Assembly: GCF_000019605.1 (NCBI RefSeq)
Contig: NC_010482.1
Coordinates: 720,001 to 752,000, forward strand
Direction of reading: 5' to 3'
Origin: Candidatus Korarchaeum cryptofilum OPF8
GTDB taxonomy: Archaea > Korarchaeota > Korarchaeia > Korarchaeales > Korarchaeaceae
DNA length: 32,000 nucleotides
The position numbers were made by a program, and so were the translations under genes. Under the pieces are notes generated by a model. It saw only the letters and a program-made list of their open reading frames with translations. It was not told where the DNA came from and ran no database searches. This document shows positions 1 to 16,355 of this stretch, piece after piece (the stretch's first letter is position 1; every line of letters starts with the position of its first letter).

Positions 1-3000
1 CCCCCTCCATTGAGAAGCGTATATTCCCCCCGAACTCAGCATCGATATTCACTTTAGCCTTCATGCCCAGCTTGCTCACATTTTCTATCGCTATTTTCAG
101 CGAAATTAGATCGGAACTACTTATTGATAGGAGCTTCTCTCCAGAGATGCTGCTATCTATCTTATCTACGTCTCTCTCCTCCTCAGGGCTCAAGATGACT
201 ATGGAGACGGATTCCTCCTTGAGCAGCCCGTCCGAGCTCACTGCCCTTATCTTCAGGGGAAACCTCCCCACCCTCCTGGGCGTTACCTCCCATGAGACCT
301 TCATCGGAGGCCTGCCTTTCCCCTGACTGAGCTCCCCTTCCTCTACCTGGAGCTTTATCTCCTCCGAATAATCTTCTACGGGTTCTATGGATATCTCGAA
401 TACTGCCTTCTCTCCCTGGTTCAATTCCACATGCTTCGGTTTCACATCGAGAACGAAGCCTCTCTTCAGCTCCTCCTCCCTCTTCTCTATCACCCCGGCC
501 CTCAAGACCTCTTCCCATCCTTCCTGCTTCACCAAGTCCTCGAGAGGTATTCTCTCCCCTCCAATCTCTACTTCGTACCAGATCCTCTTCGTTACTCCGT
601 TCTTCCGCACACCGCTTTTGGAGAGGAGCTCCTCCTTCATCTGCTCCGCAGCCCTCTTCCAGGGGAGTATCACTGCTGTATCCCTCAATCCCTTCGGCCT
701 CTCAGCGCCTGAGGATCCGATTCTCTTCCAGTAGAGTCCCCCCTCTATCTTAATCCCTATATCCAGTTTATCCAGGCCCTCGAGGAGGGCTTCCTCAACC
801 GCTTTTTGCGTAGTGAAGGGAGCCGCTGTATTCGTGTAGAATACATCCATGATTTCCTTGAACTCGAACTGCCTGTCTCCATTCACTAAATCCCATCCGA
901 GATTGTCCTTAAGAAAATCGGAGATATCCTTGAATTCCAGTTTTGTCCTGAGCTTCGGTCCAGTTCTCGGGTCTTTGAGCGCCGCTTCCACCTGCGATAT
1001 GAGGTAGGAGGAAGGGCTCGCTTCCACGATCTTTATATCGTTCCCCTCCTTCCCCTTGTATGGGTAAGCGACCTTCGTTAGGAGGGAGAGTATCTGCTGC
1101 ATCAAGTATCCTTTGTTTTCATTAATGTAACTCTCCAACTTATTACTCTGGATCTTTATTATGTCCTTATCCGTGTAGTACTCGCTCAGGTTTTCCTTTA
1201 TTTCTTCAGCTGCTTCTATCTTCGCTACATATCTGAGCTCATCCTCTAAGTTCGATTTCGATGGGAATACTACTGCTATCGTATTTGCATATGTTCTCTT
1301 TCCTCCTCCGGGTTCTCTCAGTATTATATTCCTCAGCTCCTCCTCACTAACATCCGGTTTTACCATTACGACTAACCTCAACGATTTCTCGTCCCTCAGT
1401 TCTCTCCCTATGTCATCTCCATATCCCAGTGTAATCACGTTATTACTGTCAAATACCTCGCCTGATGGCTTCTCTCCCTTCTTGCGGGTTCCGGATGTGT
1501 CTCCTTTAACATGACTTTTTACATAATTGACCAGCTTCCTGTGGAGGTCGAGGATCGCGCCTCTCAGCATCTCATCAGCTCTCCTCTCTACGTACTCCAA
1601 GACCGATGGATAGGGCGTGAACCAGAACCTGTTCTCCTCCCCGGTGAAGTGGGGGAGTTTGACCAGCATCTCCTCTACCGTGGCCTCTATATCTGGTGGC
1701 TGAAGATCGCTTGATGAAAAGCTCTCGGGATCGTAGGTCATCAAAGCTATGTCCTTCAGATCTGGGAATACTTTTAGAGGCTCTTTGAATGTTTCATAGG
1801 TGTAGGTCTTCAATAATACGACTGTAGCTATCTTGAGGGCGAGCGCTGGCTTTGAGCAGTTCGCGATAGAGCCGAGGCTTCCATCCTCGGATACTATGTC
1901 CCTGCTCGCGACATCCCTGAAATTCTTGTAGCTCTCTGTGAGGACCAGGTTCCTTATATCCTTATCCCTCAGGTCTATGTGCCACGGCATTATGAACTCC
2001 GAATCCTCCCTCCCGCTGAGGATCCTCCTCACGACCTTTCTAGTTATCCTTATCGCATCCCTCGTCTTCTGAAGATCTCTGTTCCTCGTGACGAATTCTC
2101 TGAGTACTTCCAAATACTTTGGGTGGAAAGGATAAGTATCCTTAGCCGTGATCCTCTTCTCCTCGAGTGATAGCTGCCAGTCGGATTCCGTCCCGAATAT
2201 CTCGTATCCCCTGTAGGTAGATTGGAGCCCATCTTGAGCTTTCCATGCTGCATCCTCAGATATGTATGAGAATATCCTCCTCTTGAGGACCATCACAATG
2301 TCCTCAGGGGCTACAGGAACTACTATTTTGGTGGTCTCCCTGCGTATGTGCCTCAGTATCTTTTCCGCTACGTCCCTGTAAAGCTCCTCGTAGCGGGGCT
2401 CCCCCTTCCTATACTCCGCTTGGATGGAGATCACGAGGGCTATCCTTTCGAGGGGTTCTATGGCTTTAGCCAGATTTTCCAGGAAAAGTATGACTTTCTC
2501 CCCATAATCCTTGAGATCCTCGGATCTCGTCATATTGAAAACGTAGGGGACTATCTCATCAAGCAGTATTATCGTGGGATCCTTCGCTCCAGACAAGATG
2601 GACCTGAGCTTCTCGATATCGGGAGCCGGAGATCCCTTGCTATCAAGGTGCTCTATATCAGCGTATCTGCCTAGCTTATAAGCTAACATACCCCATATCG
2701 TCCTTATTTTGAATCCCTCAGCTTCATAAGGCTCAGCTGGGTGAGGGACTAATTTCGTGCTGCTCGCGTCCATCACCACGACCTTTACCCTTCCTAGCCT
2801 CGATATCCTAGCGGCGAGTTTCTCATCGAGATCCCTCAGACTCTCCGGGCTCTCGAAGGCATGGTAGAGCGTTATCAGCGTATGGGTCTTCCCTCCTCCG
2901 AAGAGTGATGTCAGGAGGAATATATTGCTTCCCTTTTTCCCCTCTAGAGAATCTGCTATCTCCTCTATAAGCTCCCTCATCGATTTCGTGAGGTAAGTGT

Positions 3001-3154
3001 GCTTGAAGAACTCCTTGGGGTCTGTGTAGAGGGGGACCTCCCTCCGGAAGTAGACATCGCATAAGTTAGGAGCAGCTTTATCGTCCAAGCTCGTATCGTA
3101 GACATCATCCCAGACCTTCACATCTCCCCTCTGCAAATATTCCTTCAGCCCCAT
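1..3154 (-). CDS. DUF499/COG1483-like P-loop ATPase; C-terminus lies beyond the left window edge
   Basis: Absent from the ORF track because it is open at the window edge. Manual minus-strand translation from ATG 3154 (MGLKEYLQRGDVKVWDD...) stays open to position 1 (~1051 codons; frame verified at both ends). Walker A TSLFGGGKTHT (~2884-2910) and Walker B-like TIILLDEIVPY (~2547-2576). The start lies 4 nt after the stop of the upstream methylase gene. Confidence 0.85.
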   Translation of the reverse strand, partial: MGLKEYLQRGDVKVWDDVYDTSLDDKAAPNLCDVYFRREVPLYTDPKEFFKHTYLTKSMRELIEEIADSLEGKKGSNIFLLTSLFGGGKTHTLITLYHAFESPESLRDLDEKLAARISRLGRVKVVVMDASSTKLVPHPAEPYEAEGFKIRTIWGMLAYKLGRYADIEHLDSKGSPAPDIEKLRSILSGAKDPTIILLDEIVPYVFNMTRSEDLKDYGEKVILFLENLAKAIEPLERIALVISIQAEYRKGEPRYEELYRDVAEKILRHIRRETTKIVVPVAPEDIVMVLKRRIFSYISEDAAWKAQDGLQSTYRGYEIFGTESDWQLSLEEKRITAKDTYPFHPKYLEVLREFVTRNRDLQKTRDAIRITRKVVRRILSGREDSEFIMPWHIDLRDKDIRNLVLTESYKNFRDVASRDIVSEDGSLGSIANCSKPALALKIATVVLLKTYTYETFKEPLKVFPDLKDIALMTYDPESFSSSDLQPPDIEATVEEMLVKLPHFTGEENRFWFTPYPSVLEYVERRADEMLRGAILDLHRKLVNYVKSHVKGDTSGTRKKGEKPSGEVFDSNNVITLGYGDDIGRELRDEKSLRLVVMVKPDVSEEELRNIILREPGGGKRTYANTIAVVFPSKSNLEDELRYVAKIEAAEEIKENLSEYYTDKDIIKIQSNKLESYINENKGYLMQQILSLLTKVAYPYKGKEGNDIKIVEASPSSYLISQVEAALKDPRTGPKLRTKLEFKDISDFLKDNLGWDLVNGDRQFEFKEIMDVFYTNTAAPFTTQKAVEEALLEGLDKLDIGIKIEGGLYWKRIGSSGAERPKGLRDTAVILPWKRAAEQMKEELLSKSGVRKNGVTKRIWYEVEIGGERIPLEDLVKQEGWEEVLRAGVIEKREEELKRGFVLDVKPKHVELNQGEKAVFEISIEPVEDYSEEIKLQVEEGELSQGKGRPPMKVSWEVTPRRVGRFPLKIRAVSSDGLLKEESVSIVILSPEEERDVDKIDSSISGEKLLSISSSDLISLKIAIENVSKLGMKAKVNIDAEFGGNIRFSMEG

Positions 3155-3158
3155 GAGA

Positions 3159-6077
3159 TCACCCCAAATCGAGCGGAACTGCCCTAGGCACTGGTTCTAA
3201 GCATCCGACGATCCTCTCGCACAGTACCCTCTCCTTATCGTCCTTAGATAGGACCTTAGCCATCATCTTAGCCATTAAAATTGCCTCCTCGACTTGAGAG
3301 GGGTACTTCGATCTCAGTTCATCGAGCTTCTTCTTGAATTCCCCGCAGGCGAGCGAGACGGAATAATACTCGAGGACGTGCAAGGCATCTATCGAGCACC
3401 TTATCTCGGGTTCCCTCACACCCACCCCTCTGACCTCTAGAAGTTCCTCTAATTTAGCTTTTTCCGTAGATGTGGGCTCCATTAAGATGAGGCTCTGCGC
3501 TCTCGCTACTTTAGCCCCTTCGCTCTCCCCTCCTTTCAATATCCTCAGTTTCTTCGCCCTTCCCAGATCTAGGGAGGTCCCTATTGAGAATATCCTGGCA
3601 TCTGTGCTCTCTATCACTTTCTCCTTCATCCCGCTGAGGGCAAATTTTACGATAAGGTAGAACATAGCCTCAGGGCTTTTTATAGTCTCTTTAAGATCCG
3701 CTTTATATGCTAGGGCTCTCGCGAGGCCCAGGAGGGAGGCAGGGTATATGTAGCTGTCGACTAGCGTCCTGACGTCAACTCTCCCCATAGACCTGACCTC
3801 CTTGTACTTAGTGGCCACTGAAAGAGCTTCCGCTAGAGTCCCTATTATGAGATCCCTCCCGCTTATGCCCAGATCTATTAGCTCCCTAGCTTTCCTCGCT
3901 GAGGCATCTGCCATCTCCTCGTAGAGATCTGATGCATCTACTGATGCCTCGGATCCCTTCCTCCACACCACAATAATGCTAGTGTCCATGGATAGCTTCC
4001 CCCTTTTGACAACGCTCTGCTCAGATTCCGTGACCAACGGGAACGCGTTCGTGATCCTCAACCCCGAGTTCTCCCAACCGGTCTCTAGGAGGGCCTTCCA
4101 TGCATCGGGACTAGTGTGAGCATAGAAAGTCACTAAAATTCCGTCTTCCTTGAGCCTAGAGGCCATGTTATTGAAGGAGAGATTCAGGAGGTTCTGAAAG
4201 TGTTTTATGCCTTCCTCCTTCTTCGCATTCGGGCCAAGCCTAGGCGGGTTGAGGCTCACCTCACTCAAAGCATATTTTTCCCATTGGGTAGGTATCTCTA
4301 TATAGCTTTCACCGACTTTCTCGAAGAAAGCCTCCGGTATGAATCTCGGAGCGAGTTTGTTATCGATAACATCGCTCAAAGCTCTCTTCAACCAGACGTA
4401 GTAGAAATCGCTGAGCTCTGTATAGGGAACATCATCATAGTAGGGTGGATCTGTAACTATAAGATCGAACTTCTCCTCTGAATTAAGCTTATTGAGGATT
4501 GTAGCATCATCTAGTAATACTTTTATTTCGTTATTTTCGGTTAATCCCTCGTCTAATGGACTATGAGGTGTGTTATGAATGCCAAAAATAAGGTAAGAAA
4601 GGCCATTAGTACACTGTTTTATTACCCTCATCCAGCTACCAGTAAATTCAGCCGAGGGGACAGTATCTACCCAATTCCACATCATTGCTATACCGCGCAT
4701 AGCAAGTCCATGACTAATTTTTGGTATATTGCAATCCCACAGATTACATAAGAAGTTATAATCAGCATATTTACATAGCGCTATTGCCAGATATGCTGTC
4801 ACTGCTTCCGCATACTCAAACGCATCCTGCTTACTCCAACCCTCTTTAAGTTTATCCTCCTCTATCCTCTTTCCGGCCTCTCTTATCAGCTTAACGAGCT
4901 TGACTAATGTCAGAAGCTGGCGGGGGTTAAAGAGCTTATACCATTCAGTCATACCATAAAGTATTGGGAAAAGGTACCTCACACTATATGGAGAGATAAA
5001 ATCTCTTGGTACGTCTGGATCATTTGCCTCTAGGAGCTTTTTCACCTCTTCCCTCGCTTTCTCAAGTTTTTCTTGATCTTTTTCAGTACATGGCTCGAAT
5101 TCCAGGTCTCCCTGTTTAACTTTGACTTTAACGAGCAGCCTCTGCCTTGCTAAGCTATCATCCCCCTCATTACACCTCGAGAGCGCGTACTTCACGTACC
5201 ACTTCAGCTTTTCACCCTTCCCGGGCTTGATAACATGCCTCCCATCCTCAGCATCATAATACTTTATGGGTTGATTGCAGAGGAGGCATACAGCCTGCTC
5301 CCTTCTCGCCTCTATATTGCTCTCTGGAACTCTGAACTCCTCGGAATCTATTATCACTCTGTTCTTCACAATTTTAGCTCTCTCAACGGCTCTGTCTCCA
5401 AACATTTTATTCAGATCCACTACCTCTATGCCAACTCTATCCCCATTTACCACGGGCTTCATCCAAGCGATCCTCTCATACCCCTTATCTCCTTTAACCC
5501 TCGCTAGCCACCAGTTTCCCACTAGCGGAGTCCACCTCCCGCAGTTAGGGCACTTCACCTCCCACGATCCGATGTAGGCAGCTACGTCCTCATCGTAAAG
5601 CTCCTTCACCTCCTCCTTGAGCCTCTCAACAACCCACTCCCCCCACTTTTTCACGTCATCTGAGAGCTTCTTCCCATATTTAGGGTACTCCAAGATAGCC
5701 TTCAGGAACACGTAAGCTGTTGGAAGAAGCTCTACAGCTGTTGCTGAGATCCCAAGCCTAAGTGCTTCTAAGGGTATCGAGCCGAACCCTGCGAATGGAT
5801 CCAAGAGCTTTACTCCATCGAATTTGTATGAAGGGGGATTTCTATGAGCCATTCCTTTCCCCCTTATCCCTATCGAACGGAGGAAACTCTCTCTATCAGT
5901 GTTTTCAGGCAGGAGGCATCCGGCTATCACAGCTCTCGCTGCTATTAACGGCTTCCTAGTCCACCAGAAGACCATCTCCCAATGAGGAGGCCTTCCAGGT
6001 CCCTTCTCTGCAGCGGATGCTCTACTCACCTCCTTGACTGGGAACCTCGGCGACTCTATGAACTTCCTTTCGCTCAC
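3159..6077 (-). CDS. DUF1156/COG1743-like N6-adenine DNA methyltransferase with Zn-ribbon insertion
   Basis: 972-aa ORF with a GTG start. The N-terminus FPVKEVS...GRPPHWEMVFWWTRKP is typical of DUF1156. SAM motif LLDPFAGFGSIPLEA; Cys clusters CPNCGRW and CLLCNQP; catalytic DPPY in LIVTDPPYYDDVPY (4440-4451). Confidence 0.88.
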   Translation of the reverse strand: MSERKFIESPRFPVKEVSRASAAEKGPGRPPHWEMVFWWTRKPLIAARAVIAGCLLPENTDRESFLRSIGIRGKGMAHRNPPSYKFDGVKLLDPFAGFGSIPLEALRLGISATAVELLPTAYVFLKAILEYPKYGKKLSDDVKKWGEWVVERLKEEVKELYDEDVAAYIGSWEVKCPNCGRWTPLVGNWWLARVKGDKGYERIAWMKPVVNGDRVGIEVVDLNKMFGDRAVERAKIVKNRVIIDSEEFRVPESNIEARREQAVCLLCNQPIKYYDAEDGRHVIKPGKGEKLKWYVKYALSRCNEGDDSLARQRLLVKVKVKQGDLEFEPCTEKDQEKLEKAREEVKKLLEANDPDVPRDFISPYSVRYLFPILYGMTEWYKLFNPRQLLTLVKLVKLIREAGKRIEEDKLKEGWSKQDAFEYAEAVTAYLAIALCKYADYNFLCNLWDCNIPKISHGLAMRGIAMMWNWVDTVPSAEFTGSWMRVIKQCTNGLSYLIFGIHNTPHSPLDEGLTENNEIKVLLDDATILNKLNSEEKFDLIVTDPPYYDDVPYTELSDFYYVWLKRALSDVIDNKLAPRFIPEAFFEKVGESYIEIPTQWEKYALSEVSLNPPRLGPNAKKEEGIKHFQNLLNLSFNNMASRLKEDGILVTFYAHTSPDAWKALLETGWENSGLRITNAFPLVTESEQSVVKRGKLSMDTSIIVVWRKGSEASVDASDLYEEMADASARKARELIDLGISGRDLIIGTLAEALSVATKYKEVRSMGRVDVRTLVDSYIYPASLLGLARALAYKADLKETIKSPEAMFYLIVKFALSGMKEKVIESTDARIFSIGTSLDLGRAKKLRILKGGESEGAKVARAQSLILMEPTSTEKAKLEELLEVRGVGVREPEIRCSIDALHVLEYYSVSLACGEFKKKLDELRSKYPSQVEEAILMAKMMAKVLSKDDKERVLCERIVGCLEPVPRAVPLDLG

Positions 6078-6105
6078 TCACACCCCTCTGCTGGGTCCTC
6101 TCCAT

Positions 6106-6118
6106 GAAAAATATAAGT
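6106..6118 (-). promoter_or_regulatory. Candidate TATA box for the methylase-ATPase operon
   Basis: The minus strand reads AAACTTATATTTTTC, centred ~35 nt upstream of GTG 6077, in a 128-nt gap after the preceding gene. Confidence 0.35.
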
Positions 6119-6205
6119 TTTCGCTCCATCTTCCAATAAAAGTTTTCCCGGCTTTCCACAGCATTCATAGGGGTTAAGGGGCCCGCCTCAAGGCTCTTCA
6201 GCGGG

Positions 6206-7725
6206 TTAGATATATATGTGGAATACCCCTTTCGAGCTCGCGTAAGCTCTTATTCCCTGATCCGAGGTTATGAGTATGGCATTGTACTGTAGTGCGATGT
6301 CCACTATCTTCTCATCTCTCGCCTTGTTATATTTTTGATATCCCCTCAACTTTTCCCGGGCATTCAAGTCCTATCCTTCCTATCGATGAGAGTTCAGCTA
6401 ATTTACCGAGTTCTTGCTTCCCCTTTTTATTATCTGCCTCTTTTCTGACGACATTGGGCAGGATTATCGTGAACCCCTCGAAGAAGCGGGAGCTCTCGAG
6501 ATCCTTGCTTATCACCCCTCTGATCACTATATTCGTATCGGGCACTACGTAACCGCAGTAATATCTAAGGGTAATTCCTGCATTTTCTATCAATTTCTTA
6601 CATTTCGGGCACTTTATTCCGGAGATTTTCCTCCCATCATCTTCGTATATAGCGAAAGTGACACTCTTGTTTATGGAACCACAGTGCGGGCAGATTATGG
6701 CTAGAGACTGTATTGAGAGCCTTCCTTTATTGAACTCCTCTAGAAACTCTTCTGATAGAAGTTCCTCTTTTATCGGTGGGATTTGCTTCGATCTCTCAGG
6801 TTTCCCCTCAATCCTCCTCACTGTCTCATAGGATCTCCTGATGAACCACGGCCAATCCCTGCCCGACTCATACCATTTCTCCAACCATTTGATCGTCTGC
6901 ATATCATTCGGATTGCCGGAACCGACGGAGAGACCATCTATCTGGAAATCCGGATTTTCATTTATTCTCTCTATAATTTCTTCCCTAATCCTTTTCGATA
7001 CGAGAGAAGCTACTTTAACCTCTAGGTATCTCTCATCAGCCTTATTTTCTACTATAACTTCAGCTCCCTGATTCCTCAAGAAGTTAAGGTATCTTCCCAA
7101 CGTCGATCCGACTCCGTAATCATCGAGCACCACTCTACAGGAACGCATATCGGCATCTCTCGTAAATTTCGATAGGATCCTCTGATAAGTAACGTCCATT
7201 ATCTTATTCAGGTTATACTCATCTACCTCCTCAGGTGAGATCGTTTGCACCTCATACCGGAAGCCGTGCTTCATAAGGCCATCGATCCTCCTGAAGATTT
7301 CATCCCAATATTTGAAGTCGTGTCTCCTCTTCGTGTCAGCAGTACTTACTATATCGCTTAATTCGTCGAAGAGGTCTTAGGGAAAATCACACCGGCGAGT
7401 ACAACGTGACCTATGATCTCGCCTTTCCCCGTCTCATCCAAACCTATTAGGAGATCCCTCGAGGGGGTTTTGAATCTCGGAGAGCGGGAATCTATGTACG
7501 ACCACATATCTAAGACATTCCGATCCTGAGATCTGGAAGGCGTTGAATAAAGTGTCCCGTTCTTATAAAACGTGAATGTGGAATCAGATAGCTTGACTCT
7601 CCACTCCTCGCTTGGGCTTTTAACTTCCTCCTCAACACCCCCTGCATCAGTAAACGCTCTTTTATTTCAGCCGCGTCCTCTCTCGTGAGATTTTTCCATG
7701 TACGGCCTCCTACGGAAGAACTCAT
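6206..7725 (-). pseudogene. RNase HII/HIII-like + Zn-ribbon + PIN fusion gene broken by three frameshifts
   Basis: Four collinear minus-strand pieces. (1) 7725-~7640: MSSSVGGRTWKNLTREDAAEIKERLLMQG. (2) ...EEWRVKLSDSTFTFYKNGTLY...LLIGLDETGKGEIIGHVVLAGVIFPK, the RNase H2 N-terminal DE motif. (3) Track ORF 6327-7274, extended upstream, with VLDDYG, KADERYLEVKVASLVSKR, CPHCG...CPKCK and VVPDTNIVI. (4) 6206-~6330: RDEKIVDIALQYNAILITSDQGIRAYASSKGV, a PIN C-terminal motif. Shifts lie at the C5 run 7638-7642, at ~7375-7385 and at ~6300-6345. Confidence 0.7.
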
Positions 7726-7746
7726 CTTTTTCGTCGAATCTTAAGT

Positions 7747-7757
7747 GATATATAAAG
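7747..7757 (-). promoter_or_regulatory. Candidate TATA box for the gene starting at 7725
   Basis: gatatataaag (minus strand CTTTATATATC) lies ~25-30 nt upstream of ATG 7725. Confidence 0.35.
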
Positions 7758-7770
7758 CCTATATGGTGTA

Positions 7771-7790
7771 ATGCAACTGCAAGGTTGCAT
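7771..7790. promoter_or_regulatory. Inverted repeat ATGCAAC-N6-GTTGCAT in a divergent intergenic region
   Basis: Perfect 7-bp arms between divergent genes (7725 minus, 7812/7860 plus). Candidate operator. Confidence 0.35.
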
Positions 7791-7811
7791 GAATACCCTT
7801 AGAGGATAACT

Positions 7812-8297: not shown

Positions 8298-8383
8298 TTA
8301 TCTGAAATTTCTGCCTCCCACTATGCCTTATTTTCGGGGGCTCCCTAATACGTATTTAAATTTTGGGATCGCCGAATTTCCCG

Positions 8384-9136
8384 ATGGAATTGAGGGAGGA
8401 CGAGTCCTTATTCAGCCCCTCCGATACCTCCGCTACTTCGCGGAGAGGAGGGGAGTCTCTATAGACTCCTTGAGGATCCCGGATGCTATTGACATATGAT
8501 AGAGGCTTATTTGAATGTGCTAAGGGCCTCATCAGGGGCGAACCCATAGAATGGATGTATGGAGAAGCCATCCTGCACCGGCCGATTCAACGGTGTAGAA
8601 ATATGAGCTGGCCTTTTCCCGATCGGAGCACCTGCCGCAGCAGCCACACTCGAGGAAGCAATTGCATGCGGAGCTAAGATGATCATCGAGGTCGGCTTGG
8701 CCGGAGGCCTGCAGGGATTCCTGAAACCGGCTGATATAATAGTCGTGACGGAGGCAGTACGCGACGAGGGGACCTCCTATCATTACCTCCCGCCCGGAGT
8801 GAAAGTGGAGTCCTCCCAGAGATTGAGAGAGACTTTGATTGAGTGTTTGAATGGATGAGGCACTTCGTCGGCCCAGTTTGGTCCACTGACGGCGTTTACA
8901 GGGAGACCTTGGGCAAGTTCCGCAGGTTCAGGGATAGCGGCGTCTTGGCTGTGAATATGGAGACATCCGCAATTTTCGCTGTCGCGAAATATAGAGGCGT
9001 TGAAGCAGCTTCAGCTCAAGTGATTTCAGATATACTGACGGAGAGGGGATGGTTCCCAGCCTTTCACGAGAGATCTGTTAGGGAAAGTGCGGAAGTCCTG
9101 CTGAAGGCTGCCCTAGAGGTCCTTTCAAAGAGTTGA
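8384..9136 (+). pseudogene. Nucleoside phosphorylase (PNP_UDP_1, Udp-like), multiply disrupted
   Basis: Collinear fragments lie in different frames: MELREDESLFSPSD / LRYFAERRGVSIDSLRIPDAIDI / YDRGLFECAKGLIRGEPIEWMYGEAILHR / RFNGVEI-TGA(8604-8606)-AGLFPIGAPAAAATLEEAIACGAKMIIEVGLAGG...DIIVVTEAVRDEGTSYHY / track ORF 8843-9136 (GPVWSTDGVYRET...LAVNMETSAIFAVA). TATA-like tatttaaatttt lies ~25 nt upstream of 8384. Confidence 0.75.
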
Positions 9137-9318
9137 AAAGCTTTGCTTTCGTTAACTTCCGGGAGATAGAAATTCCACAGATTCAAGGTGAAGTGTGAAT
9201 AACCGGAGAGGGAGTTCGGCTCAAGGTCGAACTTATCGTTCTAAAAATGGGAAATCTGGCAGGTAAGCATTCTGATGGGAGACTTTCCCTGCTCACTAGT
9301 CAAGGTACTCGGACACAC

Positions 9319-10314
9319 TTATTCCTCGATTTTTGGACCATAGACTAGGCCGTGTTCCAAATGGTACACTGTTATAGGAGACTCTCTTCCTATTACAACT
9401 TTCATTGGCATAATTAGTTCATCGATAACCTTGAAAAACTTACGAGCGGTCTTGTAAAGATCGGAGGCCAATTTCTTTTCCTCATCTGACAGCTCTTCTA
9501 CGCACAATCCCAGCTTTTTCGCCTCATCCAGGTGAATTACTTTGCCATGATAGCTGTACTCGCTTACAAGCGTATTTGCAACACTATCTGCATTGGGAGA
9601 CTGTTGCATAGCACTGCCTTCTGACTTAATGGAGCTCCGTTTGAACATTTTGTTAGAAAGAAGCTCTATCAATAGCTTTCTCGCATGATTAATCAGTGAA
9701 TCATAATGCCCGAGCTCTGTTATGGGGATTCCGCTGAGAACTGCCTCAGTGAACGGTTTAATTACCGAGTTTACTGCTTCACTCATTCCAGGAGCTCTTC
9801 TAACAACATCTATAAGCTCCTTTATAACCTTTTCACGAAATATTTCCAGAGTCTGCCCAAAGGAATCCCGTACAACTTTCGCCGAGACCCAAGTCCTTGC
9901 ACTCTCCACGTACACCTGAGGATCCACAGGACCCAGCTCTGAAATTCGTGTCATGATTATCTTATCACCTGAGCATGCGAGGAGTGTGCCAGCAGACTTG
10001 GCCATCCTAGGAACTATGAAGGATAGTTCTCTCTCCCCCGCGAGCTTTTGCAACAGGATCCCTATATGATAAGCTGCATCTGCATCCCCTCCTAGAGTGT
10101 GAAGGACTACATCGATCCCTTCTTTGCTCGAGAGATCGTGCTCCTCAAGGAAAAACTCTAGATCGATGACATCTCTTGTGATGAATGCATCATCATGGAA
10201 GATCATTAGAATGATGTGTCTTCCTCTCTTATTCTCAAGCTCAGAGGAAATATTATCGAGCTCAGATAGATAGTCAAAAGGTCCCCTCGAAGTAATTTCA
10301 CTCATTCTATACAC
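9319..10314 (-). CDS. SDH-family (PF01972-like) ClpP/crotonase-fold serine protease
   Basis: VLHTLGGDADAAYHIG...IVPRMAKSAGTLLACSGDKIIMTRISELGPVDPQ matches the SDH/SppA-type Ser protease core. The likely start is ATG 10305, 1 nt after the upstream gene's TAG. Confidence 0.7.
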   Translation of the reverse strand: MYRMSEITSRGPFDYLSELDNISSELENKRGRHIILMIFHDDAFITRDVIDLEFFLEEHDLSSKEGIDVVLHTLGGDADAAYHIGILLQKLAGERELSFIVPRMAKSAGTLLACSGDKIIMTRISELGPVDPQVYVESARTWVSAKVVRDSFGQTLEIFREKVIKELIDVVRRAPGMSEAVNSVIKPFTEAVLSGIPITELGHYDSLINHARKLLIELLSNKMFKRSSIKSEGSAMQQSPNADSVANTLVSEYSYHGKVIHLDEAKKLGLCVEELSDEEKKLASDLYKTARKFFKVIDELIMPMKVVIGRESPITVYHLEHGLVYGPKIEE

Positions 10315-10801
10315 CTTTCAGCCTGTACATCCTTCTCCAGCCCTCAACCTTCTCCCTTATCGCGCTGTTCGATGCGAAGGAGGGGAACTTCATGTAGACA
10401 TAAGTGAGCAGGTAGGTGATCGGTGCACTGTTATAAGATCTGACTTTTCTGCGCATCTCGGCTGCCAGAATTCTGTTTTTTGCCGAGATTTCCTCGAATA
10501 TCTTTTTACCCCGCTCCATAAGGGCAGCGGATGCCGTTATTATCTTGGCCGGGTTCTCCTGCATGAAGCTGTAAATAGGGTCGCTGAACTCCTCTATTTT
10601 GATGAGCCCCTCCCTCTCCAGCTCATCTATGGAATCAGCTAGCTCACTCGACCAAGGTCCGTATTTGGAGGCTGAAAAATTATATCCGTTCAGGCCGAAC
10701 TCCTCCTGCAGAAGGAAGACTATCTTGTTCAATCTAGTGACTCCTCTTATCCTGCCATCGCACAGATAAAATACGAGAGCCAGCAGATCCACGTTCATCA
10801 A
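10307..10801 (-). CDS. wHTH protein resembling the Panacea/DUF4065 (SocA-like) antitoxin domain
   Basis: TRLNKIVFLLQEEFGLNGYNFSASKYGPWSSELADSIDELEREGLI fits the KLxKLxYLxQ...GPxS...L...G pattern. It is translationally coupled to the protease gene. Assigned by eye only. Confidence 0.45.
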   Translation of the reverse strand: MMNVDLLALVFYLCDGRIRGVTRLNKIVFLLQEEFGLNGYNFSASKYGPWSSELADSIDELEREGLIKIEEFSDPIYSFMQENPAKIITASAALMERGKKIFEEISAKNRILAAEMRRKVRSYNSAPITYLLTYVYMKFPSFASNSAIREKVEGWRRMYRLKGV

Positions 10802-10916
10802 GAACTATGGAGACCTCTGAAATTTAAATTTTGATGTGAGCTTGAGCAAACTTTCAGAGAACTCTCCTCAGAAAAGCTCAAAAATAATTTTATATGACTT
10901 AGCTTGATATAGTATT

Positions 10917-11657
10917 ATGCTATCCCTCAGCATCGGATTTAATCCTGATTTATGGACTTTGGAATCGGTCTGCAGAAGGACCATAGAAAACAAAAGAGGG
11001 AAGATAGATATCTACATATTCTACTTTGCCGTCCAGTTTCTCCCATTTCATGTATGGGATTACGAGCCTGTCATCGTATATGAAAGCGGGAATGAGGTAA
11101 CCTGCCTTTATGATGCTCTCCACTACTACATAGGATGCTCGAAAAAGCCGGAGCTCGTGATAAGCTATCCATAGAGGTCTTTTTATGAAGGATCTACTGA
11201 AAAGAAGGTTGAGCTGGATAAAATGCCGCAAAGAGAGCTTACGGATGAACTCATAAAGGTCTGGAGATCCAGAGATCACAACCCTTTCTCTATGGATGAG
11301 ATCTTCCTAGAGGATCCTTGGAAAGCATTGGATGAATTCAGGAAGGGAGAAAGGGTGAAATTTGGGGAAGAGCGAGAGAGAAAGATAGTATCACTTGAGC
11401 TTCCTGAATACAGAGATGTCGAGACTCTATACAACGATCTATCCCTTGCATTGGAGACAAATGAGATTATAAAGGGATTCAAATGGCCTGGAATTCTGGC
11501 GGAGTATGTCCTGTCATCAAGCATAGAAAAGGAGAGCCTTCAGTCCTTCCTAGCGAGAAAATGCATTGCTGAACGTATAGTGCTAGAAATGGAGAATCTG
11601 ACAAGAATAGAGGGGGAACTGAGATCAGTTTACAGCAAAACAGGAGAAGAATCCTAA
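10917..11657 (+). pseudogene. Hypothetical ~246-aa protein interrupted by one in-frame TAG (11172-11174)
   Basis: Track ORFs 10917-11174 and 11223-11657 share a frame and are separated only by TAG plus 16 sense codons. I recognised no family. Confidence 0.5.
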
Positions 11658-11834
11658 AAGCTGTAAATTATCCACAACACAGGCAAATCCCGGAAATCTG
11701 CACAGTATCTTTGTATCTAGAAGAAATTCTTGACTAGAAAAGTAAATTGAGTGCGAAAAAGATTTTTATACATTAAATTCTAGCTCATGATATGTGCATG
11801 CTATCTCACCTTAGTGACAGGGGAGGAGGATGAT

Positions 11835-11957
11835 ATGAAATATCAAGATATAGTAGAACTTAAGAAACGCATGGACTTTAACAGAACAGAATCAGAAGTT
11901 TTAGTTAAACTGGTGGAAGGTGCTCTCTACTATATAGGATGCTCGAAAAATTGTTGA
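11835..11957 (+). CDS. Small ORF (40 aa), possibly RHH-like
   Basis: MKYQDIVELKKRMDFNRTESEVLVKLVEGALYYIGCSKNC, preceded by GGGAGGAGGATGAT. Its 3' end is a near-copy of 11114-11146. Too short for the ORF track. Confidence 0.25.
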   Translation: MKYQDIVELKKRMDFNRTESEVLVKLVEGALYYIGCSKNC

Positions 11958-12025
11958 ATATGCGCACAATCTGGAGAGGAAACTTTATATAGAAAGTCCT
12001 GCAAGAATTAGAAGGGGGAGTAGAA

Positions 12026-12196
12026 ATGAGTAGAGGGAAGCAAAAGGAGCAATTATTTGAAATTAGAGTCTCCCCGGGAATTTTCGATTGGTGCAGCCCA
12101 GAGGAATTCGAGGAAGCGCTTAAGCTATACTTAGTTGATCGCCGGAATAAAACGACAGAAGAGGTTAAAAAAGAAGAAAGAAAAGCGAGATGCTAA
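12026..12196 (+). CDS. Small ORF (56 aa), Lys/Glu-rich C-terminus
   Basis: MSRGKQKEQLFEIRVSPGIFDWCSPEEFEEALKLYLVDRRNKTTEEVKKEERKARC, preceded by GAAGGGGGAG. It sits in a very AT-rich spacer. Confidence 0.25.
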   Translation: MSRGKQKEQLFEIRVSPGIFDWCSPEEFEEALKLYLVDRRNKTTEEVKKEERKARC

Positions 12197-12405
12197 AAAT
12201 AATCCTTTTCCTCTCTTTTTAATTTCCCTTTAGAAAAAGGCAAAATTAACATAACAATATCAAATACTGATGAGTTAGATATAATTTAGGAAAATAGTAT
12301 TAAAATGAAAGATACCATCAAAAGGAATTACTAGCTTAAAATATGAAATGATCTAACACCACATTTCTATAGGCTTAAGGGGGATTTCACTCCCTCTTTT
12401 TTATT

Positions 12406-13896
12406 CTAATCACTAGAAGATTTAACAATGTCATCAACTAATAAATCTCTAACTCTTCTAATGTCTTCTTCTTTTATATCCTTCTTTTGAATGTTTGGAA
12501 TTAAAAAAGATATGCGAAAGATTTCAGTTCTTCTAGCTTCCTCGTTCAGAACCCTAACATAAGAGGAAGTTGCTAATAAATCTTTCGGTTTACTTCCTTT
12601 CTTTCCTATTAGAATTCGCTCCTCCTCTTTTACGGCATAGGGTGAAAAAGGTATAGTAGAGAGTAACAAGATCGCGCCCGGGCGCGGATACATCGGTTTA
12701 CGCATTCCGCTTTTAAGTTCTTCGAGCCATCTTCTGAATTTATCAGCAATTTCCTCATCAGAAGGTTCTATGGATGATTTTCTCTTAATTTCTTCAATAA
12801 AATCATCGAAGTCCGTCTCCCTCTTAATTAAGGCAACCGGTATATACCGACGGTCGAAAAATGCCTTAAATTCTGGATGAGTTTCCTGATGCTTTCTTAA
12901 TTTAAAACGAATGAAAGTATCATCAACTTCGCCTTTTAGGAAGTTTTCAGGGCGGAAATCTTCATATTTTAGTTCGCCTTCTTCAACCATTGATTCTATT
13001 GCCATTTTTAGAAGTTCTTCCAGAGCACATACTAAATGATGGCCATATAGGGATTTATGCATCTTAATACGGGCATCTAAGATATCTTCGACCGCTCTTA
13101 AAGCCCGTTCATGTACGATTAACTGGTATTTTTCACTATATTTTTCTATAAATATATTGATAATTATTCTATTAATATCAGTCAAGCCGAATGGCAATCC
13201 TGTTGCATGCGAATCTCTTAAGAGATAGTCCATGCGGTCGGCATCCAATTGGCTTGAAATGATCTTTCTGAGAATTTCAGTACTATCTTCTGCTCTCTTT
13301 TTAATCAGAAGATTTGCCACATCTTCTACATTGATTTTATAGGATTCAATAGTTTTTCTAATTATACTATCTTTTTCGGTTATCATTTTATAACTAAAAT
13401 ATTCATGAACCGGTATATCCCTCTCACTCCTGCAGTTAAATAGATCTTTTGCCTCCTCTATCTCTTCATTTTTTAAAACTTTTCGTAAAATAGGTTCTGA
13501 AACATGTGAATAAGGACCATGACCAACGTCGTGAAGTAGGGCCGCTAACCTTACTGTTTGAATTATTCTATAACAATTTTCTGTAAATTTCTCAGAATTT
13601 GGATTTAGATTAAAAGCCTCCTTAAGCCCATCTAGTGATGCAGATCCCAAGATTTGATAGATCATTTTATTTGCCAGGTGCAAAACTCCGAGAGAATGTT
13701 CAAACCTACTTGTTTTTGCAGCTGGGTAAACCAAATAGGTAAGTCCCAAGTGATGAATATCGTGTAATCGGTTTAAAGGAGGTAATTGGAGAAGGTTGTA
13801 TTCAAGCTCAGTTAATTGAATAGGTCCATGAACGGAATCCATAATAGTTTTTGAGTATTCAAATCTTGGTAGAAATACGATCCCTTTTTTCGTCAT
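12406..13896 (-). CDS. HD-domain dNTP triphosphohydrolase-like protein (COG1078 / SAMHD1-type)
   Basis: Carries RFEHSLGVLHLA, LAALLHDVGHGPYSH and QLDADRMDYLLRDS, the H...HD...D metal-site signature of this family. ATG 13896 is preferred over the track's TTG 13908 (GGAAGGGGA lies upstream). Composition is AT-rich. Confidence 0.8.
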   Translation of the reverse strand: MTKKGIVFLPRFEYSKTIMDSVHGPIQLTELEYNLLQLPPLNRLHDIHHLGLTYLVYPAAKTSRFEHSLGVLHLANKMIYQILGSASLDGLKEAFNLNPNSEKFTENCYRIIQTVRLAALLHDVGHGPYSHVSEPILRKVLKNEEIEEAKDLFNCRSERDIPVHEYFSYKMITEKDSIIRKTIESYKINVEDVANLLIKKRAEDSTEILRKIISSQLDADRMDYLLRDSHATGLPFGLTDINRIIINIFIEKYSEKYQLIVHERALRAVEDILDARIKMHKSLYGHHLVCALEELLKMAIESMVEEGELKYEDFRPENFLKGEVDDTFIRFKLRKHQETHPEFKAFFDRRYIPVALIKRETDFDDFIEEIKRKSSIEPSDEEIADKFRRWLEELKSGMRKPMYPRPGAILLLSTIPFSPYAVKEEERILIGKKGSKPKDLLATSSYVRVLNEEARRTEIFRISFLIPNIQKKDIKEEDIRRVRDLLVDDIVKSSSD

Positions 13897-14393
13897 TCCC
13901 CTTCCCAAATGAGCTCGCTACAAGGCTATTTAATCTTTTCGTTCCTTCTCCCTTTCATGAATTTCGTGAACTTATCAGCCCTTTCTTCCTCTATACGATT
14001 CCTCTTTTCTTAACTTAAAAATGGTCTTTAGGGACAACCCGAAGCATCTTTTTCTCTAACAACCTTTATTTTAATTCCTTCATAGTTAGGAACTTCCCTA
14101 ATCACCTCTAATTCCACTTATTCCGTTTTCTATATGGCTCAGAGATGGCAAAAGAAGAAGCTAGAGGAGGTGAAGTTCAAACTTAAGAGGAATCAATCTA
14201 AAAGTTCGATATAGAAGATCTGGGCCTTGTTCACATATCTCATGTGCCGCACGTGCATGCCTTCTTCAGTGAAAATAAGAATGAGGAAAGCATAACAGCT
14301 TAGTGAAAGAGCACTAGAATAAGAGCCTTCAGAGGAACACTCCAGAGCCGAGATAAACCAAAGAGGATCAATACAGAACCGTTAAGCTTATAA

Positions 14394-14963
14394 ATGCTGA
14401 GCAGATATGAGGTTAGGGAAATGATTGTCGAAATAGTTAGCCTCACGGAAAATAACCTTATTGAAGCCCCTGAATGGGAAGAGTATCCCTTCAGCTGCAA
14501 GTACTGCACATACTGGGAGTTCCCAAGAGAGCAGAAGGATTCCTCAAAAAAGGAAGAAACGCTGGCTAAGAAGCTTGAATGGTTGAGAAGTGCGAGAAAA
14601 GCATTTGGCGAATGCGGAAAGATAATGTACGTGGATGGAAAGCCCGTTGGCTATGCACAGTATGCTCCTCCAAAAATGTTTCCTCTTTCAGCTGAATACC
14701 CATCTGGACCTCCCAGTGAGGATGCAGTCCTGATCTCCTGCCTCTTCATTGCTCATAAAGAGTACAGGGGAAAAGGGCTTGGCAGCCTGCTTCTACAAAG
14801 TATAGTTGAGGATCTGAAAGGAAGAGGAGTGAAGGCTGTTGAAACCTTCGCTAGGAAGAATAACACCAATAATCCGTCTGGACCCGTGGAGTTATACCTG
14901 AAAAACGGGTTTATGATTTTCAGGGATGATCCGGAGTTCCCTTTAATGAAGCTAGAACTATAA
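14394..14963 (+). CDS. GNAT-family N-acetyltransferase
   Basis: FIAHKEYRGKGLGSLLLQSIVEDLKGRGVKAVETFA is acetyl-CoA motif A (R/Q-x-x-G-x-G/A). Confidence 0.75.
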   Translation: MLSRYEVREMIVEIVSLTENNLIEAPEWEEYPFSCKYCTYWEFPREQKDSSKKEETLAKKLEWLRSARKAFGECGKIMYVDGKPVGYAQYAPPKMFPLSAEYPSGPPSEDAVLISCLFIAHKEYRGKGLGSLLLQSIVEDLKGRGVKAVETFARKNNTNNPSGPVELYLKNGFMIFRDDPEFPLMKLEL

Positions 14964-15039
14964 AGGAACATTTCTGGAGATGTTTATACCGGAATATTTA
15001 CGGCCTTTACTGGTTCAGTCTCATAAAGAGTATTTTAAA

Positions 15040-15085
15040 GCAAGCACCGGCTTGCGTCTTTGAAAGGGATTTAAATGGTGCTTGC
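15040..15085. repeat. 9-bp perfect inverted repeat GCAAGCACC-N28-GGTGCTTGC
   Basis: Arms at 15040-15048 and 15077-15085, in the AT-rich spacer 77 nt after the GNAT stop. Confidence 0.4.
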
Positions 15086-15288
15086 CGCGTGCATTAAACC
15101 TGCATTGTTTATAGTTTCTGGCCTCATTCCACCGGCAGCCCAAACATACTCAAAACAAGACAAATGCATGCAGCTAATATCTATCACTAACAGGATTAGG
15201 TTGTGAGAATTTCTTAATAAAACTTCAATTTAAAAATACATCTTTTATGTTCATAGTTCCATGTGCACGCTTGGAAGAGTCAAAGCTG

Positions 15289-16355
15289 TTAGAGGCATTG
15301 AGCAGCTCTCTTAACCACTGGATCCGTAAACTCGTTCTCATCATCTATGATTGAGTGCTTTCTCAAGCTCTGAAGCACCTCATATAGCACTCTGTCGCTC
15401 AGCTCCATCCCCTCATAATTCTCAAGAGCCCTTTTTAGCCTCCCCCAACTCCGTTAAACCTTCAGCGAGCAGCTTTAAAACCACTCTATATCTTTTGCTC
15501 ACCCTACTCGCAAGGAAGGACTCGATCTCGCTTTTCGCCAGCTCTAAAGCTTCATTTATCAAGCTATCAAAATCTCCGCCTCTCACCTTCAGGTAGCCGT
15601 AGTAGGTGAGCCAGCCGATGATCCCATCTAGCTCCTCAACAGCCCTCTCCACCTCACTTCCCTTAACTCCCGCTTCTTCGAATCCCCTGTTCAGAAAATC
15701 CAGCGACTCTTCCCTTGAGAGCTTGCGTGTCCTCACCTCCAGATAAGCCCTTCCGTAAAGGGGGTTCTCGGGATCCCCTAAAATTCCATAAAGCACGCCC
15801 ATCTCAGAGCCCGTTAGCACGAAAGAGAGATCTCTGTGGAAGTCGTAGGAATGCACTATTGCGCCGTGGAGGGATGCCCCAATAGGGCCCCGGGATCTCT
15901 GAAACTCATCGGAGACTATGATTACCTTCTCTCCAGTCCTTTCCCCAACTTCATCGAGCACATCGAAGAGCTCCCCTAAGAGGGGCCTCTTCCCGGGCAG
16001 CCAGTTCAAAGAAACCTCGAAGCCGAGCACTGAAACCCCTCTTAACCTAGAAACGAGCTTGAGAAATTCTCCCTTACCCCATCTAGAGGCCCTCTCGATG
16101 AACTCGCTGAAGCTCCTCGAGATCAAAGAGTAGAACTCCCTCCAGGAAGCGGAACCCCTGAGGTCTATGAATGCGTAAGGCCTATCGCTCTCATTCAAAG
16201 CTGTGAGCACAAGAGAGGTTTTCCAGCCCTCCTTATCCCAGAAACCACCGTTAAAGTTCTTTCAACTATTTAGATAACGACCTTAGTTCCTCATCGAAGT
16301 CGTACAGATCCCTCCTCGACACCTTCGGTCTCGGGTCGGACAGCAACTTCCGCAC
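15289..16355 (-). pseudogene. Arch_ATPase (PF01637/COG1672-like) with C-terminal wHTH, disrupted
   Basis: N-terminal piece from GTG 16355 (RKLLSDPRPKVSRRDLYDFDEELRSLSK-TAG). Then a degenerate P-loop, GGFWDKEGWKTSLV, leads into track ORF 15422-16210 (IIVSDEFQ Walker B). After a shift at the CCCTTTTT run (15429-15436) the frame continues ALENYEGMELSDRVLYEVLQSLRKHSII...DPVVKRA to the stop at 15289-15291. Confidence 0.65.

Follow-up and report, generated by a model that had tools for sequence, protein, structure and literature searches.

A DUF1156 methylase-DUF499 ATPase cassette of the BREX-related/Hma superfamily in Candidatus Korarchaeum cryptofilum OPF8, with a beta-CASP nuclease and an exchangeable methylase segment

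The DNA analysed here, referred to as the window, is a stretch of 32,000 nucleotides (nt) from Candidatus Korarchaeum cryptofilum OPF8 (NC_010482.1, positions 720,001 to 752,000), and its left end carries, on the minus strand, a gene for a DUF1156 DNA methyltransferase followed by most of a gene for a DUF499 AAA+ ATPase. Judged by sequence, these two genes are part of a cassette that belongs to the DUF499-centred superfamily of BREX (bacteriophage exclusion)-related (BR) or Hma systems, combining as it does a DUF499 ATPase with intact Walker A and Walker B motifs, an adjacent DUF1156 methylase, and a Swi2/Snf2 helicase. The system itself is already known, and its new elements are a dedicated beta-CASP nuclease and an exchangeable segment in the methylase. 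A preliminary description of the window, made from the letters alone, had taken the methylase-ATPase pair for the core of a restriction-modification (R-M)/BREX-like defence module, barely characterised and with no established mechanism. The family identities and the defence assignment are borne out by the Pfam matches (E 1e-11 for DUF1156 and 1306 bits for DUF499), by the PADLOC matches to HmaB (173 bits) and HmaC (152 bits), and by Foldseek, which matched the ATPase model best to BrxC. The remark on mechanism is dated, given four publications. An operon of COG1743, DUF499 and SWI2/SNF2-nuclease genes, in some cases followed by an EVE gene, was reported from diverse archaea as a predicted restriction system (Bell et al. 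2020, PMC7641849), and was named Hma a year later (PMC8565338, 2021). HmaA of Halomonas meridiana was then found to protect E. coli from T4, its NOV_C nickase activity being essential (PMC11232893, 2024), and the DUF499-centred family has since been classified as BREX-related types 1-3 (Rakesh & Krishnan 2026, PMC12839542). GenBank has contained the OPF8 locus since 2008.

The positions of all features are listed in Table 1. The methylase starts with a GTG codon that is directly preceded by an in-frame TGA. The ATPase frame opens with the ATG at 3154 and stays open down to position 2, which amounts to 1051 codons, and its translation is 100% identical to amino acids (aa) 1-1051 of protein entry P0281. 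Since this part equals the first 1051 aa of the 1120-aa ACB07452.1, we count the ATPase as intact, with its last 69 aa left of the window; the Pfam DUF499 match, which covers profile positions 2-961 of 1024, likewise places ~60-70 ATPase residues off the window. The gene has no entry in the supplied track of open reading frames (ORFs) because its frame runs past the window edge. The stop codon of the methylase (TGA, 3161-3159) is followed by tctc and then by the ATPase ATG, leaving a 4-nt gap, so closely spaced that the two genes may be translationally coupled. Elements resembling a Shine-Dalgarno (SD) sequence (GGGGTG) stand 5' of both start codons, and 5' of the methylase there are two tandem boxes resembling a B recognition element (BRE) with TATA box, the proximal one of which (GCGAAAACTTATATTTTT) ends ~30 nt 5' of the GTG. 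Both boxes are identical in two relatives (L086 and L087), and we regard the boxes and the SD-like elements as putative start signals. Thus, the two long minus-strand ORFs, 4 nt apart and with a TATA-like box, exist as first described, and the methylase motifs with their Cys-cluster insertion and the GGGKTH and LLDE motifs of the ATPase were all found at the mapped positions. That neither window protein contains a nuclease domain also held, as none was found with family and PADLOC profiles or with Foldseek searches of the models. Their description as the longest ORFs of the window applies to the ATPase (at least 1051 codons) and not to the methylase, which is shorter than a 1004-aa GH18/PKD ORF. 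Scans of the window for tRNAs and Rfam families gave no matches.

In addition to the DUF1156 and HmaB matches, the methylase is recognized by the PADLOC profile MTase_II (943 bits) and weakly by PglXI. Motif I comes before motif IV, and the ~440-aa insert between them holds a four-Cys zinc ribbon. In an alignment of 60 homologs, residues D93, P94, F95, A96, F98, G99 and S100 of motif I, the four cysteines (C176, C179, C264 and C267), and the DPPY of motif IV are invariant. This DPPY would fit methylation of adenine at N6, although by sequence it may also serve methylation of cytosine at N4. The AlphaFold2 (AF2) model of the methylase has a mean predicted local distance difference test score (pLDDT) of 79 and a predicted template modelling score of 0.78. 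A search of PDB sequences with the methylase found nothing, and Foldseek with the model returned nothing below E 0.1 (best E 0.16), the weak partial matches being to the DNA methyltransferases CamA, EcoP15I Mod, and M1.HpyAVI.

The insert between the two motifs also contains a hypervariable stretch that ends shortly before DPPY. Korarchaeum methylases that are elsewhere 95-97% identical share only 51-57% of residues over aa 421-540 and 23-40% over aa 481-510, and the DNA of the segment cannot be aligned to that of L087 or L004. Among 121 methylase homologs, the identity of the segment (aa 421-520) hardly follows that of the backbone (r = 0.15); in 163 of the 223 pairs with a backbone identity of at least 90%, the segment is less than 60% identical, and a few pairs show the reverse, such as 98% in the segment and 71% in the backbone. 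Conservation of the ATPase, by contrast, falls only gradually towards the C-terminus. A segment decoupled in this way from its backbone and located beside DPPY is what one would expect if specificity were set by a swappable determinant, and aa ~421-520 are therefore probably the target-recognition determinant, directing the enzyme to strain-specific sites. Such a swappable segment predicts strain-specific methylation motifs. The exchangeable segment seems to be unreported.

In the ATPase, GGGKTH of Walker A and residues D199 and E200 of Walker B are invariant in 58 homologs. The AF2 model (pLDDT 87) consists of an N-terminal AAA+ core followed by helical and winged-helix modules, a beta-sandwich resembling immunoglobulin (Ig) or fibronectin type III (FnIII) domains, and a domain of the RNA recognition motif (RRM)/ferredoxin-like type. 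The latter agrees with the C-terminal RRM of DUF499 ATPases described in PMC12839542. Foldseek matches of the beta-sandwich are to PKD, PapD-like, and BIg domains, and the beta-rich strings that had been read as a C-terminal extension (VLDVKPKH and FPLKIRAVSSDG, at aa 901-976) lie within it, so that this extension is real according to the model. The best Foldseek match of the whole model is BrxC (9zll_C, E 1.8e-7, template modelling score 0.50 over 609 columns), the matched part being the N-terminal portion of BrxC from the Acinetobacter BrxC-BrxB-PglZ complex; all other matches are to Ig-like domains. A search of PDB sequences with the ATPase profile found nothing. A HEPN fusion was considered for the ~75 helical residues before Walker A and rejected, these residues being without a match.

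The methylase and the ATPase (ACB07453 and ACB07452) are followed in GenBank by ACB07451 and ACB07450. As these are four consecutive accessions, they indicate four consecutive genes in OPF8. ACB07451.1 is a 975-aa protein with SNF2-rel_dom, Helicase_C and NOV_C domains (the latter at aa 858-945, E 6e-20), and ACB07450.1 is a 415-aa protein with a metallo-beta-lactamase fold, a beta-CASP nuclease; each shares its 90% cluster with the corresponding gene located 3' of the ATPase on contigs 96-98% identical to the window. Accession order and cluster membership together indicate the order DUF1156 methylase, DUF499 ATPase, Snf2-NOV_C helicase, and beta-CASP nuclease. The helicase partner that had been postulated left of position 1 is thereby accounted for, whereas the DUF3780 partner postulated with it gave no match in the Korarchaeum cassettes, and the fourth gene had been overlooked. 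The helicase carries the motifs GxGKT, DEAH, QRIGRxxRxGQ, and, in NOV_C, D...EVK (read from P0296), NOV_C being a C-terminal PD-(D/E)XK nuclease domain. PADLOC models matching the helicase are HmaA (185 bits), BrxHII (186-190 bits), and DrmD. Only ~43 residues precede the core, which begins at residue ~42-55, and the protein is matched from position 112 of the HmaA profile and position 127 of the BrxHII profile, indicating that an N-terminal module is missing. In the beta-CASP protein, the motifs SHMHLDHLG (HxHxDH), VSHSA, GDFR, EGTN, SGHYY and IHT are conserved among the aligned members, as expected of metallo-beta-lactamase motifs 1-4 and beta-CASP motifs A (acidic), B (His) and C (His). A six-sequence profile of this family gave full-length matches to RNase J (E 2e-8) and PDB entry 2az4 (E 1e-16), and matched Artemis and Apollo over the metallo-beta-lactamase core. 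PglZ was considered for the fourth gene and rejected, the motifs and profile matches being those of a beta-CASP protein. In a near-identical relative (L002), the gap between ATPase and helicase is 128 nt long and contains no ORF; within it (L002 4630-4756), a BRE/TATA-like element (AAACTTTTAAGTTATTTTT), resembling the boxes of the methylase, lies ~15-37 nt 5' of the helicase ATG. The cassette may consist of two transcription units, methylase-ATPase and helicase-beta-CASP.

The same four-gene cassette was found in L002 and L003 (~98% nucleotide identity to the window), L086 (96%), L087 (95-97%), and L004 (~83%). The only contig with an identical methylase, L001 (Logan SRR9434248_68), ends within the ATPase. 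Scans of genome and metagenome contigs with the Walker A pattern gave a best match of ~50% among the matches listed. Ratios of nonsynonymous to synonymous substitution rates (dN/dS) of methylase and ATPase were 0.12 and 0.14, respectively, in comparison with L004, and 0.08 and 0.17, respectively, in comparison with L002, so that the purifying selection proposed earlier for both window genes was confirmed. In 29 loci of an archaeal clade, the succession of methylase, ATPase, in some cases a ~145-aa ORF, helicase, and beta-CASP recurs down to ~30% ATPase identity, and the four-gene order spans several archaeal phyla. Where loci reach past the helicase, the beta-CASP gene lies directly 3' of it in at least 10 distinct lineages, lies elsewhere in the locus in one case (L095), and is absent from L005 and L011. 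The beta-CASP family is compact, with 277 database clusters that are almost all archaeal, and many members lie on contigs that agree in length with those of the ATPase and methylase matches. When three beta-CASP homologs on long contigs were picked blindly, all three were located directly 3' of the helicase in such cassettes. Because the family is compact and is placed directly 3' of the helicase, blind picks included, the beta-CASP gene is a dedicated component of the archaeal-clade cassette. PADLOC has no model for this component, and the accessible part of PMC12839542 lists HNH, HKD, PD-(D/E)XK, TOPRIM/OLD, HEPN, PIN and Schlafen among the auxiliary nucleases and no beta-CASP. In the indexed literature we found no paper linking DUF499 with beta-CASP, or Korarchaeum with DUF499, and the accessible portion of the supplements of PMC12839542 contains no mention of Korarchaeum. 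The role of beta-CASP as a dedicated component of the archaeal clade therefore seems to be unreported.

Several further observations were made on the relatives. A conserved ORF of ~110-150 aa lies between ATPase and helicase in L005, L006, L007, L009, L011, L089, L091-L094, L168, and L169; it has no significant family match and does not occur in the Korarchaeum subclade. The proposal that this ~145-aa ORF of the distant relatives is DUF3780 was rejected, as it gave only a sub-threshold DUF7680 match and noise. Decayed cassettes also occur. The one at L086 16412-19340 has its helicase split into parts of 731 and 262 aa, and at L168 73-6581 the methylase and the ATPase are each in three pieces, with helicase and beta-CASP genes that look intact. 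On the 3' side of the cassette, relatives carry a DruE-like helicase of 1608 aa, an ATPase of the BrxC_BrxD/AAA_16 type, and an MZB (DUF1998) protein (L004 10790-15616; L086 21622-22770; L087 20784-22121), and in view of these other defence-type genes the cassette sits in a defence island.

What the cassette provides is, in our judgement, more likely than not a restriction-modification-like defence, with the methylase and the ATPase as the modification and sensing half. The methylase would mark host DNA at a strain-specific motif set by the hypervariable segment just before the catalytic DPPY. The ATPase, which is BrxC-like and of the ORC/Cdc6 type, would load on or scan DNA, its winged helix-turn-helix, Ig-like and RRM-like C-terminal domains recognizing unmarked or foreign DNA, and would then recruit the effectors. 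The Snf2 motor would translocate and NOV_C would nick the invader DNA, after which the beta-CASP nuclease, a relative of RNase J, Artemis and Apollo, would process or degrade the nicked DNA. In this scheme we infer the discrimination of self from non-self by methylation, the sensing and recruiting by the ATPase, the substrate of the beta-CASP protein, and the choice between N6-methyladenine and N4-methylcytosine. A number of points weigh against it. Halomonas HmaA defended alone, indicating that methylation-based discrimination is not strictly required (PMC11232893), and published experiments concern neither an archaeal member nor any methylase or ATPase of these systems. The window DNA itself does not contain the helicase and beta-CASP genes, whose place beyond its left edge is deduced from accession numbers and from contigs nearly identical to the window. 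RNases such as RNase J are among the solved structures most closely related to the beta-CASP protein, so that its substrate could be RNA. As to the methylase, its model has no significant solved structural neighbour in Foldseek, and both its base specificity and its assignment to DNA, not RNA, are read from motifs and weak matches to DNA methyltransferases; the hypervariable segment, which would presumably contact DNA, is modelled with low confidence (pLDDT <50 at 443-468 and 503-518).

Four other readings were weighed. We consider it unlikely that the cassette acts by BREX-like exclusion without DNA degradation, in which a methylation-guided, Cdc6/Orc1-like ATPase would block the initiation of replication on unmodified DNA and the nucleases would be secondary or a backup. 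BrxC as the best solved-structure match of the ATPase model would suit this, as would the homology of DUF499 to Cdc6/Orc1, the proposal by Bell et al. of an interference with foreign DNA replication (PMC7641849), and the resemblance of the methylase to type-3 BREX methylases noted in PMC12839542. However, two tightly linked nuclease genes with intact catalytic motifs are conserved across the clade, the bacterial homolog cannot defend without its NOV_C nickase activity (PMC11232893), and the cassette contains no PglZ, BrxA, BrxB or BrxL. It is also improbable that the cassette is a toxin-antitoxin (TA) or abortive infection system, with the helicase-nuclease and beta-CASP as a latent toxin that the ATPase sensor would set off upon infection, killing or arresting the cell, and the methylase as antitoxin and addiction factor instead of a marker for direct restriction. 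Here, L168 cuts both ways: decayed copies have lost methylase and ATPase (L168) or helicase (L086), which speaks for such a system, yet the helicase and beta-CASP genes of L168 look intact beside a fragmented methylase and ATPase, and an unchecked toxin should not be tolerated. Bell et al. hold that such operons "arguably represent TA systems" (PMC7641849), HmaA defends alone, without its methylase (PMC11232893), and the cassette lies among toxin-antitoxin genes in a variable island; the hypervariable specificity segment is nevertheless what is expected of sequence-specific self-marking.

The remaining two readings are very unlikely. An autonomous methylase-ATPase pair, serving for instance epigenetic regulation or chromosome maintenance with the nucleases adjacent only by chance, would agree with the apparent translational coupling across the 4-nt gap and with the BRE/TATA-like box that the helicase of a 98%-identical relative seems to own, which makes two transcription units possible, but not with a four-gene order kept from 98% to ~30% ATPase identity in several archaeal phyla, nor with the patchy, island-like distribution of the family and its defence-gene neighbours. 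Equally hard to credit is that the OPF8 cassette is an inactive remnant decaying like its neighbours (the RNase HII-like gene 5' of the methylase has at least two frameshifts, phosphorylase gene fragments lie nearby, and decayed cassette copies exist elsewhere), since its four proteins are full length (972, 1120, 975, and 415 aa), the catalytic motifs are intact, and dN/dS is 0.08-0.17.

We further propose, tentatively and at somewhat less than even confidence, that the archaeal clade is a distinct, undescribed DUF499/Hma/BREX-related subtype, marked by the coupled beta-CASP nuclease and a TUDOR-less helicase, a frequent ~145-aa protein, and the exchangeable methylase segment. If true, beta-CASP and Snf2-PD-(D/E)XK, translationally coupled, would form a two-nuclease 'nick then resect' effector, and near-identical Korarchaeum strains would bear different self-marks through the exchange of a ~100-aa segment. 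The latter would be a natural experiment, since different methylation motifs are to be expected in strains with ~97% identity outside the segment. A compact, intact archaeal cassette, in which two nucleases are separable and the specificity segment is obvious, is also a tractable thermostable model for the biochemistry and structure of methylase-ATPase-helicase complexes. For annotation, the analysis unites in one defence cassette the K. cryptofilum genes that now carry the labels "ATP-binding protein", "helicase-related protein" and "MBL fold metallo-hydrolase", and it adds beta-CASP as an extra component for which current detection tools have no model.

Table 1. Features of the methylase-ATPase pair in the window (aa numbers refer to the respective protein)
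Feature	Window position	Strand	Basis or remark
DUF1156 DNA methyltransferase, intact, 972 aa	3159..6077	(-)	ACB07453.1, exact match
DUF499 BrxC-like AAA+ ATPase, aa 1-1051 of 1120	1..3154	(-)	ACB07452.1
Methylase motif I (S-adenosylmethionine, AdoMet, binding), DPFAGFGS, aa 93-100	5778..5801	(-)	motif position
Methylase four-Cys zinc ribbon, CPNC 176-179 and CLLC 264-267	5277..5552	(-)	motif position
Methylase hypervariable exchangeable segment, aa ~421-520	4518..4817	(-)	identity drop among relatives
Most variable core of methylase segment, aa 481-510	4548-4637	(-)	identity drop among relatives
Methylase motif IV (catalytic), DPPY, aa 543-546	4440..4451	(-)	motif position
ATPase Walker A, GGGKTH, aa 86-91	2882..2899	(-)	motif position
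ATPase Walker B, ILLDE, aa 196-200	2555..2569	(-)	motif position
ATPase Ig/FnIII-like beta-sandwich, aa ~900-996	167..457	(-)	eight strands in AF2 model
Start of ATPase C-terminal RRM/ferredoxin-like domain, aa 1007-1114	2..136	(-)	cut by window edge
4-nt gap and SD-like GGGGTGATC overlapping methylase stop codon	3155..3170	(-)	sequence
SD-like GAGGGGTG 5' of methylase GTG	~6081-6088	(-)	sequence
Two tandem BRE/TATA-like boxes, GAAAACTTTTATT and GAAAACTTATATTT, 5' of methylase GTG	6100..6150	(-)	sequence

The window as a whole had been described as full of decayed genes. This stands for a frameshifted RNase HII-like gene and for fragments of a purine/uridine phosphorylase (PNP_UDP_1) gene, and does not stand for much of the small-ORF clutter, which aligns with annotated small toxin-antitoxin-type genes in relatives. 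Directly 5' of the methylase, at 6205-7792 on the minus strand, lies an RNase HII-zinc ribbon-PIN-like pseudogene with at least two frameshifts, the parts of which are in different frames: a catalytic N-terminus (GLDETGKGEIIG), a body of 315 aa at 6327-7274, and, at 6205-6330, a PIN-like tail. Positions 6433-7792 have no counterpart in the near-identical L086 and L087, and were therefore inserted in OPF8 specifically or, alternatively, deleted from the relatives. The phosphorylase fragments, of 59-152 aa, were found at window 8300-9140 and at L001 6942-7399, and the PNP_UDP_1 gene is thus decayed across strains. A stretch of ~6.9 kb (9139-16038), with a low G+C content of 35-42% in its core at 11-15 kb, is likewise without an equivalent in L086 or L087 and has the look of an island specific to the strain; it encodes an SDH-type protease, a GNAT acetyltransferase, an ATPase_2 protein, a 164-aa protein matching the PADLOC PDC-M19A and DarG C-terminal models, and an HD and HD_assoc_2 protein with a weak dGTPase match. 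At 25436-28450 on the minus strand, the 1004-aa ORF mentioned above combines CARDB, Y_Y_Y, PKD, and GH18 (chitinase-like) domains. Further proteins of the window are ACB07460, ACB07475, and ACB07479 of K. cryptofilum OPF8.

The cassette can be compared with several known systems. With BREX it shares an ATPase fold that matches BrxC, a helicase that matches BrxHII, and a methylase that weakly matches PglXI. However, the OPF8 ATPase ends in a beta-sandwich with RRM instead of a coiled coil, classical nucleases are the effectors, and the cassette is without PglZ, BrxA, and BrxB/F; indeed, PglZ, BrxA, BrxB and BrxL were found neither in the cassette nor in the flanks of L002, L004, L086, L087, and L170. 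The operon of Bell et al. (PMC7641849) agrees with the cassette in gene order, in its three families, and in being archaeal, but the fourth gene in OPF8 is beta-CASP and not a standalone EVE reader, and none of the Korarchaeum cassettes showed an EVE domain. The three protein families are also those of Hma (HmaA helicase, HmaB methylase, and HmaC ATPase), with PADLOC models matching all of them, and the OPF8 helicase has a C-terminal NOV_C PD-(D/E)XK domain like HmaA. Compared to the bacterial loci, the OPF8 ATPase is ~25-30% identical over the N-terminal ~500 aa, and the genes are in the order methylase, ATPase, helicase, whereas the helicase stands upstream in most of the bacterial loci retrieved. 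The OPF8 helicase is also shorter (~975 aa versus ~1150 aa), lacking the N-terminal ~110 profile positions, and OPF8 adds the dedicated beta-CASP gene.

Among the BREX-related types of PMC12839542, type 3 is defined by standalone PglZ and iSTAND proteins with a nuclease-less helicase, whereas OPF8 has beta-CASP and a helicase with NOV_C. Type 2 has a standalone DUF3780 and an N-terminal HKD (PLD) nuclease, for neither of which there is a match in the Korarchaeum cassettes. Type 1 has the same core of DUF499 ATPase, DUF1156 N6-methylase, and Swi2/Snf2 helicase, and the same primary effector, a C-terminal PD-(D/E)XK nuclease on the helicase; both are without DUF3780, PglZ, and iSTAND, and the RRM-like domain at the C-terminus of the ATPase is common to both. 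It differs in that the OPF8 helicase has no room for the N-terminal TUDOR domain, that in the OPF8 ATPase the RRM is preceded by an Ig/FnIII-like beta-sandwich, which PMC12839542 reports for type-2 ATPases, and that the auxiliary nucleases named in the accessible part of that paper do not include the conserved beta-CASP nuclease of OPF8. Because of its C-terminal PD-(D/E)XK nuclease, and being without DUF3780 and PglZ, the Korarchaeum cassette is closest to BR type 1, as a variant within a known kind rather than a clean member of any described subtype.

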